In this document: positions 17,386 to 24,279 of the stretch, piece after piece | Numbering within the stretch: position 1 is the first letter of the stretch | Layout: every line of letters starts with the position of its first letter | Assembly (NCBI GenBank): GCA_963761305.1 | Contig: CAVXGK010000001.1 | Location: 1,664,001-1,728,000, forward strand | Reading direction: 5' to 3' | DNA length: 64,000 nucleotides | Source: an uncultured Gemmatimonadaceae bacterium | GTDB lineage: Bacteria; Gemmatimonadota; Gemmatimonadetes; Gemmatimonadales; Gemmatimonadaceae | Notes under the pieces: generated by a model | Seen by the model: only the letters and a program-made list of their open reading frames with translations | Databases searched by the model: none | Told to the model about the DNA's origin: nothing | Made by a program: the position numbers and the translations under genes

Positions 17386-17423
17386 ACGAACTCCCATCCT
17401 CGAATCGCTCGTGACGAGCGAAC

Positions 17424-17454
17424 AAAAAAGGCCCCGACGATTTCGTCGTGGGCC
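17424..17454 (-). terminator. Intrinsic terminator in the metK 5' leader (attenuator)
   Basis: Minus strand GGCCCACGACG-AAAU-CGUCGGGGCC-UUUUUU, about 40 nt upstream of the metK start. Confidence 0.85.
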
Positions 17455-17464
17455 CGAAGGCATC

Positions 17465-17535
17465 CGACGACTTAGACGGGTTTTTCCGGAGGCTTGCCGG
17501 CGCGCGGCCCGTCAAATCGGGGAAATCGCCGCGCG
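17465..17535 (-). ncRNA. Candidate SAM riboswitch aptamer (SAM-II/SAM-V-like H-type pseudoknot)
   Basis: P1 CGCGCGGC/GCCGCGCG, L1 GAUUU, P2 CGAUUU-GACGG/CCGUC-U-AAGUCG with a bulged U, L3 hairpin CCGG/CCGG plus AAAAA; directly upstream of the terminator and metK. Confidence 0.7.
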
Positions 17536-17540
17536 AGTGC

Positions 17541-17568
17541 AAGCTACCACGCGCGCCCCACGCGTCAA
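17541..17568 (-). promoter_or_regulatory. Sigma70-type promoter for the metK leader
   Basis: TTGACG-16 bp-TAGCTT with extended TG; predicted start site falls at the 5' end of P1. Confidence 0.65.
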
Positions 17569-17610
17569 GCCACGGGATGCTGCAGCCGCCGGCAACGGAA
17601 ATGTCTCGAG

Positions 17611-18705
17611 TCAGGGCACTGTGATCAGCCCGACGGCGCCGCCGAGCTCCTCGTCGTGCACGCTCGGCAGGTTCGACGGCGCGACCCATTCGCCGCCGTC
17701 GATGCGAATCGCGAGACGATGCGGACCCGGGGACACGACACGCTCGACGAACCAGCGGTCGTCGCCGCGCCCCAGCGTCACCGCCTCCCATCCGGTGAAG
17801 TCGCCCATCAGTTCGACGCGCTCCGCTTCACGCGATGCGCTGAGCGAGATTCGGGTCATCCCGGCGGCCGTTCGCGTGACGTCGACCCGCAACGCTCCGC
17901 CGGAGCGGCGGCTGAAGGACAGCGTCGCGTGCGGCTGCCACGCGACGCGCAGTCCCAGCGACGCGTACTGTGTGCTCGGCGTTCCGCGCACGACGTCGCT
18001 CAGCGCGTTTCCCGCCGCGAGCACGAGCGCGACCCTCGGCGCCACCCACAGTTCGGCGTCGGCGATCTGCCAGCCGCCGCTCTGCGCGCCGGCACGAAGG
18101 CCCGCGCTAGCGCCGACCGACACGCCGGCGGCCTCGTGGCGCCAACCGGCGCCGACGTCCGTGTAGGTGATGCTTCCGACGCGCGTGAGCAGCGCACTCG
18201 CGAGCAACCGCTCGTTGCCGGCAGACCACCATGCGTCGCCTGATCCACGGCCGAGCGTGAAGTTGACGTTGTCACCTGTGCGCGCGGTCGCACCCGTGCT
18301 TGCGCCGACCGCGACGCCGCCGAGCGCCCCGCCGAGTCGGAGTCGCGCGTTCACTTCGCCGCTGCCGGTGGTCGGCGCGCCCGTTTCCGTGAACCCGCTC
18401 AGCGCACCGCCGATTTCCCACCGCAATGGATTGAAGACCTGGCCCGTGACGCCGCCCAACGCCAACGCCTGTCCCGTCCATGCGCTGTTGGCCTGCAGCG
18501 ACGACAGCGCCGCGGCGTGAAACCAGGTTTGGTCACCGAATCCGTCGATCGTCGCGCCGAATGTTTGGGCGATCGATTCGGGGAGTCCGGTTTGTCGAAG
18601 GTGCGACAGCCCCGCGTCGGCCTTGACCTGCCACTGCGCGCGAGCTGAAGGAGGCGCCGCCAGGGCCGCGATTGTCGCCAGGAGCGCCGTCCGAACTCGC
18701 CGCAT
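17611..18705 (-). CDS. Exported (beta-barrel-like) protein with C-terminal CBM48/AMPK glycogen-binding domain
   Basis: Signal peptide, amphipathic beta-strand pattern, VELMGDFTGW...PGPHR..IRIDGGEW. Confidence 0.75.
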   Translation of the reverse strand: MRRVRTALLATIAALAAPPSARAQWQVKADAGLSHLRQTGLPESIAQTFGATIDGFGDQTWFHAAALSSLQANSAWTGQALALGGVTGQVFNPLRWEIGGALSGFTETGAPTTGSGEVNARLRLGGALGGVAVGASTGATARTGDNVNFTLGRGSGDAWWSAGNERLLASALLTRVGSITYTDVGAGWRHEAAGVSVGASAGLRAGAQSGGWQIADAELWVAPRVALVLAAGNALSDVVRGTPSTQYASLGLRVAWQPHATLSFSRRSGGALRVDVTRTAAGMTRISLSASREAERVELMGDFTGWEAVTLGRGDDRWFVERVVSPGPHRLAIRIDGGEWVAPSNLPSVHDEELGGAVGLITVP

Positions 18706-18763
18706 CCCTCAAAGTAGTGTCCGCGCGCGGTCCAGGTTCCGTAGCCGTTCGTCAGTCCGCGAG

Positions 18764-19423
18764 TTACGGTTTTCTCGGTGCCGAGGGCCCCGGTGCGCTG
18801 GCGGTCAAATCGCCGCTGCTTCCCGCGACGGGTGACAGGAGCGGCGTGAGTCCGTGGAATCGAATGTCGGCCGACTCTCCGCCCTTCGCTCCCTGCTGGA
18901 CGTCCGAGTTCACGTTGTTCCCGAGCGCGACGAGCTGCTCCGGCGTGGCGCCTCGCCGCATCAACTGAGTGACGATTTCGCCGGCTCGCTCGGGCGGCAC
19001 CTGATTCACGACCAACTGCGTGAGCACGCCAATCGGTACGGCGATCGCGCGGCCGGGCGCGGCCTGATGAACGCGGCTCAGCACCGCTTTCGGAATCTTG
19101 AATGAGAGCGCGACCTCGCCCGCCGTGATGTCCGCCGCGAGCGTGTCGGTCGCGATCGCGTCGCGTGCCGCATCCAACCGGTCGGCGACGGCCTGCGCCG
19201 TCTCGACGATGCGCGCCGGCAACGCGTGCACGACGAGCGCGAAGCGAATCTTCGAAACGATCGGGTCGATCGGCAGCCCCCGCGCGCGCGCGGCCCGAAC
19301 GATCTGCGTGAGTGCGGCGCTCGTCTCACGATCGGCGCCGGCGAATGTGAGCGAGTCCTGCGCGCGCACTGTTCGCGCCGCCAGAGCGAGAACGAACGCC
19401 GGGACGACGAGTCGCCCGTTCAC
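18764..19423 (-). CDS. Secreted hypothetical protein
   Basis: Signal peptide ending VRA-QD; translationally coupled (GTGA) to the upstream gene. Confidence 0.75.
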   Translation of the reverse strand: MNGRLVVPAFVLALAARTVRAQDSLTFAGADRETSAALTQIVRAARARGLPIDPIVSKIRFALVVHALPARIVETAQAVADRLDAARDAIATDTLAADITAGEVALSFKIPKAVLSRVHQAAPGRAIAVPIGVLTQLVVNQVPPERAGEIVTQLMRRGATPEQLVALGNNVNSDVQQGAKGGESADIRFHGLTPLLSPVAGSSGDLTASAPGPSAPRKP

Positions 19424-20043
19424 GGCCGCCCCACGATGACGACCGATCCCTCGACGCCCAGGTCTGGATCACGCGCCCGCGCGACACGGGCATCGGGATC
19501 GAGCGCGAAGACCGAGTCGTTCACCATGAATCCATACGTGTGCCGTCCCGGCGCGATCGGAATCGTCACCGACCACAGATCGCCGTCCGACGCGCGAACC
19601 ATCGGCGCGCTCGCCGCGTTCCATCCGTTGAAGTCGCCGACCAGCGACACGCGACGCGCCGACGCGCTCCGAAAAACGAACTGCTGCGGAATCGGCATCA
19701 CGTCCAGCGATCCGTTGACCGCCGGTTGTACCGGTACACTCGATGTCCCGGCACTCGACGCCGCCGTCCCACTCGGCGCCGTGCGCGTGAGCGGCCCGCG
19801 CACGATGAAGCCGACGAGCGCGGCTGCCGCGACGAGGCTGCCGAGCCCCGCGAGTCGCCACCGACGTACGGTCGAGCGTCGACCAGACTCCGCACCCATC
19901 AAAGGCTCGTCCGCTGCGGGCATCACGCGTTGCGCGGCCGCCGCCTCGACGACGCGGCGAATCGCGCCGACGTCCCCCGGCGGCACTTGCCGGAGCGTCT
20001 GCACCGCGCGGCGCAACACGTGGTCGCGTTCGACGTCGCTCAT
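19420..20043 (-). CDS. Probable anti-sigma membrane protein with CBM48 (isoamylase early-set) domain
   Basis: One TM helix, then VSLVGDFNGW...PGRHTYGFMVN...DP; ATGA overlap with the sigma stop. Confidence 0.8.
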   Translation of the reverse strand: MSDVERDHVLRRAVQTLRQVPPGDVGAIRRVVEAAAAQRVMPAADEPLMGAESGRRSTVRRWRLAGLGSLVAAAALVGFIVRGPLTRTAPSGTAASSAGTSSVPVQPAVNGSLDVMPIPQQFVFRSASARRVSLVGDFNGWNAASAPMVRASDGDLWSVTIPIAPGRHTYGFMVNDSVFALDPDARVARARDPDLGVEGSVVIVGRP

Positions 20044-20618
20044 TGGTGCTCCGGCGCGAGTCGCGCGCGCAGCGCGTCGCAGGCGCGCTTGACTCGCATC
20101 TTGAGCGCCGACTGGCCGACGCCCGTCATCGTCTCGATCTCCTCGTAGGAAAATCCTTCCACGTAGTGCAACAGAAAAATCTCGCGATTGTGCTCCGGCA
20201 ACTCGGCCAGCGCCCGGCGAACCGAGTCGTCCCACTCACGGTCGATCGACGCGCTCGCCGTCTCGGCCGCCGGCACGCGCGCCAGTGCTTCGTCGTCGGA
20301 CACGGCGTGCGACGCGCGCCGCTGCGACGCCGTGTTCGCCGTCCGGCAGCAGTTGCCGAGGATCTGAAAGAGCCACGACTCGAACCGCTGTCGTTCCTCG
20401 TACCGCGGCAGGGCGCGATACAGACGAACGAACGTCTCCTGCACCACGTCCTCCGCTTCGTCCGCGTCGTGCAGCATCGCCCGCGCGAACCGGAGGGAGC
20501 GCGGATAGTACGCCTCCACGATGCGCGTGAATGCGTCGATGTCGCCGAGTTTCGCGCGACTGATCGTCCGCGGATCGAGTCCGGCGGATTCTGCGGGATG
20601 CTGCAGCGGGTGGCTCGT
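20040..20618 (-). CDS. ECF RNA polymerase sigma factor
   Basis: RAKLGDIDAF, AEDVVQETF, WLFQI, REIFLLHYVEGFSYEEI; conserved region extends upstream of the first GTG (20519), so the start is uncertain. Confidence 0.88.
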   Translation of the reverse strand, partial: TSHPLQHPAESAGLDPRTISRAKLGDIDAFTRIVEAYYPRSLRFARAMLHDADEAEDVVQETFVRLYRALPRYEERQRFESWLFQILGNCCRTANTASQRRASHAVSDDEALARVPAAETASASIDREWDDSVRRALAELPEHNREIFLLHYVEGFSYEEIETMTGVGQSALKMRVKRACDALRARLAPEHQ

Positions 20619-21822: not shown

Positions 21823-22764
21823 ATGGCTTCCCGGCTCAATGTTCTCGACCAGCTCTCGATTCTCGCCGACCCTACGCGGAGCCGGGCGCTGTTGCTGCTC
21901 GAGCGTCACGAGCTCACCGTCGGCGAGCTGTGCACCATTCTCCAGCTCCCCCAATCCACCGTAAGCCGCCACCTCAAGCTGCTCAGCGACGACGGCTGGC
22001 TCGTCGCGCGCGGCGAGGGCACCAGCCGGTTCTACCGCATGCTCGGCGACCGACTCGACGAATCGACCAGATCATTGTGGTCGGTCGTGCGCGCGCAGAT
22101 CTCGGCGAGTCCCGGGGCACGGCAGGACATGCGCCGCGCCGACGGCGTGCTCGCCAAGCGTCGCGACAAGGCAATCCTGTTTTTCCGGGATTCGTCGAAC
22201 CTGTGGGACGTGATGCGCACCGAGATGATCGGCGAACGCGCCGACTTGCTCGCTCTGCTCCACCTCCTCGACGACAGCTGGGTCGTCGGCGACCTCGGCT
22301 GCGGCTCGGGCCACATCGCCGAGGCGTTGGCGCCGTGCGTGAAGAAGGTCGTCGCCGTCGACGAGTCGGGTCCGATGCTCGAGGCCGCGCGCAAGCGTCT
22401 CGCATCGCACGACAACGTGGAGCTCCGCGTCGGCACCATCGAGTCGCTGCCGATCGATGATGGCGCGCTCGACGCGGCGATTCTCTTTCTCGTCGCGCAC
22501 TTCGTCACCGACCCGTCGCGAGCGATGGCCGAGGTGCGCCGCGTGCTCCGCCCCGGCGGACGGCTGCTCATCGTGGATCTGATGTCGCACGACCGGGTGG
22601 ACTACGTCGTCCAGCTCGGGCACGTCTGGCAGGGATTCGACGGACCACAGGTGATCTCGTGGCTGGAAGCGGCGGGGTTCGGGGCGTGCCGCTATCAACC
22701 GCTCCCCGCCGCGCCGGAAGCGAAAGGGCCGACGCTGTTCGTGGCCAGCGGCCGCAAGCAATGA
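21823..22764 (+). CDS. sahR: ArsR-HTH + class I SAM-binding domain regulator (SahR-like)
   Basis: LADPTR, PQSTVSRHLK HTH; DLGCGSG SAM motif; directly upstream of ahcY. Confidence 0.85.
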   Translation: MASRLNVLDQLSILADPTRSRALLLLERHELTVGELCTILQLPQSTVSRHLKLLSDDGWLVARGEGTSRFYRMLGDRLDESTRSLWSVVRAQISASPGARQDMRRADGVLAKRRDKAILFFRDSSNLWDVMRTEMIGERADLLALLHLLDDSWVVGDLGCGSGHIAEALAPCVKKVVAVDESGPMLEAARKRLASHDNVELRVGTIESLPIDDGALDAAILFLVAHFVTDPSRAMAEVRRVLRPGGRLLIVDLMSHDRVDYVVQLGHVWQGFDGPQVISWLEAAGFGACRYQPLPAAPEAKGPTLFVASGRKQ

Positions 22765-22794
22765 CAATGACACATCACTCTCGAGGATTCTGAA

Positions 22795-24279
<1,485 letters not shown>

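Follow-up and report, generated by a model that had tools for sequence, protein, structure and literature searches.

A probable SAM OFF switch: a variant of the SAM-II/SAM-V pseudoknot ahead of a second metK in Gemmatimonadaceae

Described SAM-binding pseudoknots and the metK leader

The riboswitches closest to the RNA described here are the SAM-binding pseudoknots SAM-II and SAM-V. SAM-II (the metA motif; RF00521, SAM_alpha), with its metX structure 2QWY (PMC3303485, PMC3764141), is an H-type pseudoknot with a Y-R pair closing P1 by a GAUUU strand. Its pocket, as listed in PMC3764141, includes U10-U12, U20, U21, G22, C43, U44, A45 and A46, and both the carboxyl and the amino group of the ligand are needed (PMC1273637). 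Most SAM-II riboswitches are transcriptional (PMC6061858, PMC1273637); the statement in an initial annotation of this DNA that SAM-II and SAM-V mostly act on translation is thus wrong for SAM-II, and termination itself is not what is new in the present variant. In SAM-V (RF01826; metY of Ca. Pelagibacter, PDB 6FZ0), both the amino and the carboxyl group of SAM are bound by A50, and a severe loss of binding followed when inosine took its place (PMC6061858). A third system, SAM-II long loops (RF01726, PMC2864571), is likewise a SAM-II variant once missed by homology search; it is listed for Bacteroidetes and marine samples. Tandems of SAM riboswitches sharing one ligand, with the terminator-bearing aptamer first, are well known (PMC9481103).

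The element under study precedes a metK gene on the minus strand of a 64,000-nucleotide stretch of DNA from an uncultured Gemmatimonadaceae bacterium, hereafter the window (Table 1). Promoter, P1, GAUUU, P2 with its bulged U, L3 hairpin, terminator with U6 and competing hairpin had all been proposed from the letters alone, and all are found where they were placed, base for base. P2 as a whole comprises 11 bp (17519-17509 with 17479-17468) with one bulged U (U17474), and the start codon of metK lies 86 nt past the aptamer core. The preferred reading, given a probability of about 0.8 on the analysis that follows, is a new SAM-II/SAM-V variant acting as a SAM OFF switch on a second metK.

Table 1. 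Layout of the metK leader in window coordinates
Feature	Position	Strand	Remark
-35 hexamer, predicted	17563..17568	(-)	sequence
Extended -10 (TG + hexamer), predicted	17541..17549	(-)	hexamer 17546-17541, 16-nt spacer
Transcription start, predicted	~17534-17535	(-)	inferred
P1 5' strand	17528..17535	(-)	7 bp conserved, 8 here
L1 third strand GAUUU	17523..17527	(-)	equivalent of SAM-II G8-U12
P2a 5' strand	17516..17519	(-)	final base U here and C in roughly half of the copies; partner G17471
P2 5' strand: UU (U20, U21), G22 and four more pairs (5-bp P2b)	17509..17515	(-)	
P1 3' strand	17501..17508	(-)	sequence and covariation
P3 hairpin within L3	17486..17500	(-)	length and sequence variable; A5 follows here
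P2b 3' strand with bulged U17474 (U44 equivalent) and AA (A45, A46)	17472..17479	(-)	
G at the SAM-II A47 / SAM-V A50 position	17471	(-)	
Switching strand	17465..17471	(-)	partner L1 (P2a) or terminator 5' arm
Antiterminator, predicted ON fold	17443..17470	(-)	-14.1 kcal/mol
Intrinsic terminator with U6, predicted OFF fold	17424..17455	(-)	hairpin 17455-17429; -20.3 kcal/mol
Probable ribosome-binding site, outside the aptamer	17391..17395	(-)	inferred from sequence
metK, SAM synthetase, 361 aa	16300..17385	(-)	TIGR01034 and three Pfam domains

The gene 3' of the leader is indeed metK, as annotated, scoring 476 bits against TIGR01034 (cut-off 309), and is 94-95% identical to copies in named Gemmatimonadaceae records, an identity that puts the window within this family. 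It is the second copy in its genome; the other (G000:C2:1186578-1187639), 57% identical, stands directly behind an upstream coding region and has no such leader. This arrangement suggests one constitutive and one inducible metK within one genome. Two metK copies occur in most genomes of the genus, and the short riboswitch-led copy is patchy outside it. In the RNA runs X1 and X2, 5% of the words were present, the contigs were metK genes of other organisms and leader depth was ~1 or 0. Directly upstream of the leader (17611-20519, minus strand) are genes for an ECF-type sigma factor, a CBM48/AMPK-type glycogen-binding protein, a family-less protein and a 364-aa protein with a C-terminal glycogen-binding domain. 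At 4.4 kb from metK, on the plus strand (21823-24279), an ArsR-HTH + methyltransferase gene, which we take to encode a SahR-like regulator, and ahcY form a SAM-cycle cluster.

Sequence conservation and the switching strand

Judged from sequence, the evidence beyond chance for the element is comparative. The aptamer core was found upstream of metK in 30/30 and then 5/5 further homologues fetched by protein. A DNA pattern matched in 22 of 401 genomes of the phylum, with 0 for the backwards control in all rows listed, and a looser pattern run on all genomes gave at least 120 loci, of an estimated total of ~290. Of these, 2 stayed unparsed, 16 were dropped as chance matches (short P1 or unpaired P2b) and 102 were left, which by record name, among the matches listed, belong to Gemmatimonadota (79), Acidobacteriota (18), unclassified records (3), a Cyanobium bin (1) and an Acidimicrobiia bin (1). 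After removal of duplicates, the pool held 128 aptamers, two true copies with a bulged P1 having been left unparsed; 127 distinct copies, from Gemmatimonadota and Acidobacteriota, have enough 3' sequence. The element does not accompany every related metK: in the class of a Vicinamibacteria record (G439), it is present in 13 of 30 fetched metK loci. Of the other 17, one is truncated at a contig end and two (L204 and L207) show, by eye, a leader resembling SAM-I. At L194, L205, L206 and L208-L216, related metK genes that lack the element have a short conserved reading frame ahead of them.

Both pseudoknot helices covary among the copies. In 71 of the 127 copies, picked by the analyst for diversity, 98.4% of 1278 cells in P1 and P2 are paired, a count inflated by the dropping of the 16 non-pairing matches and drawn from related copies that are not independent, and 9 of 18 pairs are changed on both sides. 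None of 500 shuffles reaches any of these measures, controls slid along the alignment pair at 28-48%, and compensatory changes are present in the protein-found copies too. In P1, 6 of 7 pairs are changed on both sides and 97.6% of cells are paired. In P2b, the pair next to G22 (equivalent 23-42) is A-U in 121, G-C in 4, U-A in 1 and C-G in 1 of 127 copies, and the following pair is C-G in 86 and U-A in 37; both were free in the search pattern. The last P2a base of the 5' side forms U-G (65) or C-G (62) with G17471. The first two pairs of P2a do not exceed the shuffle control, one of their sides being invariant.

The unpaired core is fixed. GAUUU is invariant in alignment A1, where the pattern imposed it, and also in all 42 parsed protein-found copies; U10-U12, U20, U21, G22, C43, U44, A45 and A46 are invariant in both sets. 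The SAM-II pocket positions given in PMC3764141 are kept except C23, G42 and A47. The A47/A50 position, which lay outside the search pattern, is G in 127/127. L3 is less constrained. P3 has at least 4 bp in 117/127 copies and in 65% of shuffles, a control that is weak where DNA is rich in GC, and the last 5 nt of L3 hold at least 4 A in 6/127 and 0 or 1 A in 44/127. Of the element as first drawn, the eighth P1 pair (69/127) and the A5 tract are not features of the family. With a program that cannot fold pseudoknots, the leader as a whole has an ordinary folding score (z -0.98); pseudoknot-free folds show an inner hairpin in the P1 loop, the 5' side of which varies among homologues. As read from sequence, the conserved RNA is an H-type pseudoknot of SAM-II/SAM-V build.

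The expression platform is conserved as well. The terminator hairpin (-20.3 kcal/mol, z -4.06) is matched by 0 of 200 shuffles, and the alternative hairpin at 17470-17443 (-14.1 kcal/mol, z -1.29) is not significant alone. Hairpins with a stability of at least 10 kcal/mol and at least 5 U behind them occur in 96/127 copies against 0/53 coding controls; in 31/127 the U-tract is shorter than 5. Within the terminator hairpin, a complement to the 3' strand of P2a is present in 103/127 copies, compared with 189/1373 permuted 4-mers (14%), and three additional pairs extend it, in 99, 93 and 89 of 118. One strand thus has two partners, L1 (P2a, terminator freed) or the terminator arm, and the folds are mutually exclusive. 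This exclusivity had been proposed for the antiterminator and terminator and holds; the register drawn for it does not, the conserved one being GUCG/CGAC, three bases off. Since the terminator is the more stable of the two hairpins, switching would have to be kinetic. In folds of the growing transcript, the antiterminator is the best local fold as long as the terminator 3' arm is lacking, and it gives way to the terminator afterwards.

These elements suggest the following course. A promoter-like pair lies within 48 nt upstream in 61/127 copies, against 0/323 control windows, and its -10 sits 6-7 nt ahead of P1 in 52 of the 61; a strict consensus promoter scan, too strict for this genome, gave 0 sites. 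With this conserved spacing, transcription would start at P1. P1, P3 and the 5-bp P2b would then fold, P1 and P2 being backed by covariation. By analogy with SAM-II and SAM-V structures, SAM would be stacked within P2, where the bulged U would pair with its adenine and two uridine carbonyls would flank its sulfonium; the roles assigned to the bulged U and to AA follow PMC3303485 and PMC6061858. Binding would dock GAUUU in the groove and lock P2a, as in those structures. With P2a locked, GUCG would be kept from CGAC of the terminator 5' arm and the terminator would form, an outcome predicted from the exclusivity visible in the sequence. When SAM is low, the antiterminator would be the first to form as the RNA is made, and transcription would run on into metK. 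SAM being the end product, an OFF switch on its synthesis fits.

Place of the element beside SAM-II and SAM-V

Existing models miss the element, as had been anticipated. The whole window gives 0 Rfam matches at gathering score; at E up to 10, the region gives four weak matches, none of a SAM family, which are taken as chance. At the same E value, RF00521 leaves the element unmatched in the region and in the genome (150/591 candidates scored), RF01826 gives 0 matches in both, and RF01726 gives 0 in the genome (150/217 candidates scored). As a positive control, RF00521 scores a canonical SAM-II of the same genome (G000:C2:2538916-2538990, L180) at 43.7 bits; it has a hairpin and U-tract and precedes a metH-like gene. 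Across 61 related genomes, RF00521 finds canonical SAM-II in 53 and scores it above cut-off in 52, and R1, the model of the variant made in this analysis and built partly from these genomes, finds 39 matches >67 bits in 36 genomes; compared by eye, the 84 listed RF00521 matches and the R1 matches do not overlap. The assignment as a variant SAM-II/SAM-V pseudoknot is upheld, with the core kept, the helices covarying and the Rfam cut-offs not reached. No description was found in the literature on SAM-II/SAM-V variants or Gemmatimonad riboswitches, mostly papers open without subscription; supplements of motif-discovery studies could hold one.

With SAM-II, the element shares the H-type pseudoknot, the Y-R pair that closes P1 beside GAUUU, the UUG / CUAA core and bulged U, the promoter just before P1, the long P2a and the terminator platform. 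It differs in pair 23-42, C-G in only 1/127 copies, so that the G8-C23-G42 triple cannot be kept. A G in a Y-G pair replaces A47, whereas in canonical SAM-II of the same clade (29 of 30 parsed) an A follows CUAA in 29/29, facing A or C. Four bases separate G22 from P1, compared with two in 28/29 canonical copies, and L3 is a hairpin, not the A-rich strand of SAM-II. The likeness to SAM-V lies in the longer lower P2, the P3 within L3, the U triples and the bulged U. From SAM-V it differs as follows: the lower P2 has 5 bp, against the 4 bp (G21-C46 to C24-G43) reported for SAM-V (PMC6061858); two bases stand ahead of UUU instead of three; the Y-G pair takes the place of A50 facing A18; and a 4-bp P2a is joined to a terminator, whereas SAM-V has a 2-bp P2a over the ribosome-binding site. 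The A-stack after P3 (A41, A42 in SAM-V) is not conserved. On sequence grounds, then, the element belongs to neither SAM-II nor SAM-V; it appears to work like SAM-II with a P3 as in SAM-V. The G in place of A at the amino-acid end, the SAM-V-like P3 and the frequent tandems had all been overlooked in the initial annotation. Strict membership of either class is refuted by G47, the P2b differences and the non-overlapping RF00521 and R1 matches. An intermediate aptamer with SAM-II-like GC/GC pairs, an extra bulged A, P3 and G47 precedes metH at L098:1495-1561 (-).

The SAM OFF reading is favored by the covariation, the invariant pocket, the SAM and methionine genes downstream, the tandems, the terminator, antiterminator and promoter counts (96, 103 and 61 of 127) and the intermediate L098. 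Counting against it are the change of A47/A50 to G, the lost G8 triple, the 17/30 metK loci without the element and the 31/127 copies with short U-tracts, and also, among 95 pattern-found copies, the 22 without an identified gene and the 18 before proteins without a Pfam family. As a G in a Y-G pair replaces the SAM-binding adenine, the amino-acid end must be held differently from SAM-II and SAM-V; SAM may bind less tightly or through a different contact. The variant thus offers a natural test, since a pocket holding SAM without its supposedly necessary adenine would imply a new contact or a new ligand. It would represent a third sequence type on the SAM-II/SAM-V scaffold, invisible to current models and present in two abundant, little-cultured phyla.

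A changed ligand is the strongest of the other readings, if an unlikely one: the same fold and OFF switch would respond to a tail-modified SAM relative, of which decarboxylated SAM or some other adenosyl-sulfonium is the most plausible. The contacts to adenine and sulfonium are retained, G occupies the aminoacyl contact in 127/127 copies against A in 29/29 canonical copies of the same clade, and a metagenome scan for a 5-bp-P2b form with A47 yielded 20 matches, 19 of them parsed, none with a P1 of at least 5 bp and a paired P2b; one of these matches, L264, scores 28 bits with R1. A spermidine-sensing SAM-I variant provides a precedent (PMC10853860). The genes behind the element are, however, ordinary SAM regulons, with no polyamine gene identified among the first downstream genes (40/95 of these being unidentified or without family). 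Tandems that share one ligand are well known (PMC9481103), and a pyrimidine-paired G could still accept groove bonds from the amine. Were the changed ligand real, the variant would form a separate class, and its tandems with SAM-II or SAM-I would be two-input gates through which Gemmatimonadota and Acidobacteriota of soil control the synthesis of methionine and SAM.

Two further readings are less probable still. A ligand-independent structure is improbable: a stable 5' pseudoknot with a leaky constitutive terminator, or a small RNA, would set a basal level, and proteins such as the presumed SahR-like neighbor would regulate. The 11-bp P2 might form even without ligand, and it appears together with the terminator in the best ligand-free fold of the full leader; the ArsR-methyltransferase gene and ahcY at 21823-24279 are nearby. 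Long SAM-II P2a helices are expected with or without ligand (PMC6061858), and a SAM-II-independent terminator is known for metA (PMC9373788). Such a passive structure would not be expected to show an unpaired GAUUU and bulged U invariant across two phyla, the antiterminator complement at 103/127 against a 14% control or the enrichment before SAM-pathway genes. Less credible again is an ordinary SAM-II or SAM-V member missed only through its G+C content or loop length. Topology and core are alike and L098 is intermediate, but RF00521 does find the GC-rich canonical SAM-II of the same genomes without any of its 84 listed matches overlapping R1, and three differences (P2b length, P3 and G47) are consistent.

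Downstream genes and tandem partners

For the 95 pattern-found copies, the first gene downstream is metK (30), a metY-type gene (16), a peroxiredoxin gene (7), a metX-like gene (1) or metH (1), so that 55 precede metK, metY, prx-metY, metX or metH. The rest are the 18 copies before proteins without a Pfam family and the 22 without an identified gene, many on short loci; for 23 unresolved loci, 86 downstream frames were compared with Pfam, which identified only metH and unrelated genes. The peroxiredoxin gene is followed by metY in all 3 loci long enough to show the next gene. In L080, L111 and L121, a 1-Cys peroxiredoxin stands right behind the variant, followed by the metY-type gene.

Tandem arrangements are frequent. 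By regular expression, 43/127 copies stand ahead of a second SAM element, which is a canonical SAM-II in 19 and SAM-I-like in 24; Rfam confirmed two SAM-II and two SAM-I-like partners among 20 loci scanned. Described tandem SAM-II/SAM-V, SAM-II/SAM-II and SAM-II/SAM-I-IV systems (PMC9481103) share this order, with a terminator-bearing first aptamer and the second nearer the start codon. They differ in that the first aptamer here is an uncatalogued variant; the copy in the window stands alone.

The SAM-I-like partner is itself divergent (L066:1662-1768, L168:113-218 (-) and ~22 more loci): an additional hairpin precedes it, and its P1 has an AUG/CAU core. Against RF00162 it scores 47.9 and 45.8 bits (cut-off 44.4) in the 2 scanned loci that reach the cut-off, and it may be an uncatalogued SAM-I variant. 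It mostly precedes genes without a Pfam family. Proteins of 220-320 aa without Pfam match form a family behind one or two SAM-type riboswitches (L078:1790-2476, L061:1844-2800, L067:595-1269, L122:1694-2485 and L110:1647-2486), and an NCBIfam search of two of them gave no match. These proteins may serve a new function connected with SAM or methionine, and the variant points to several uncharacterized genes as likely parts of a SAM regulon. A second such family of family-less proteins behind these riboswitches occurs in Acidobacteriota (L135:1752-2153).
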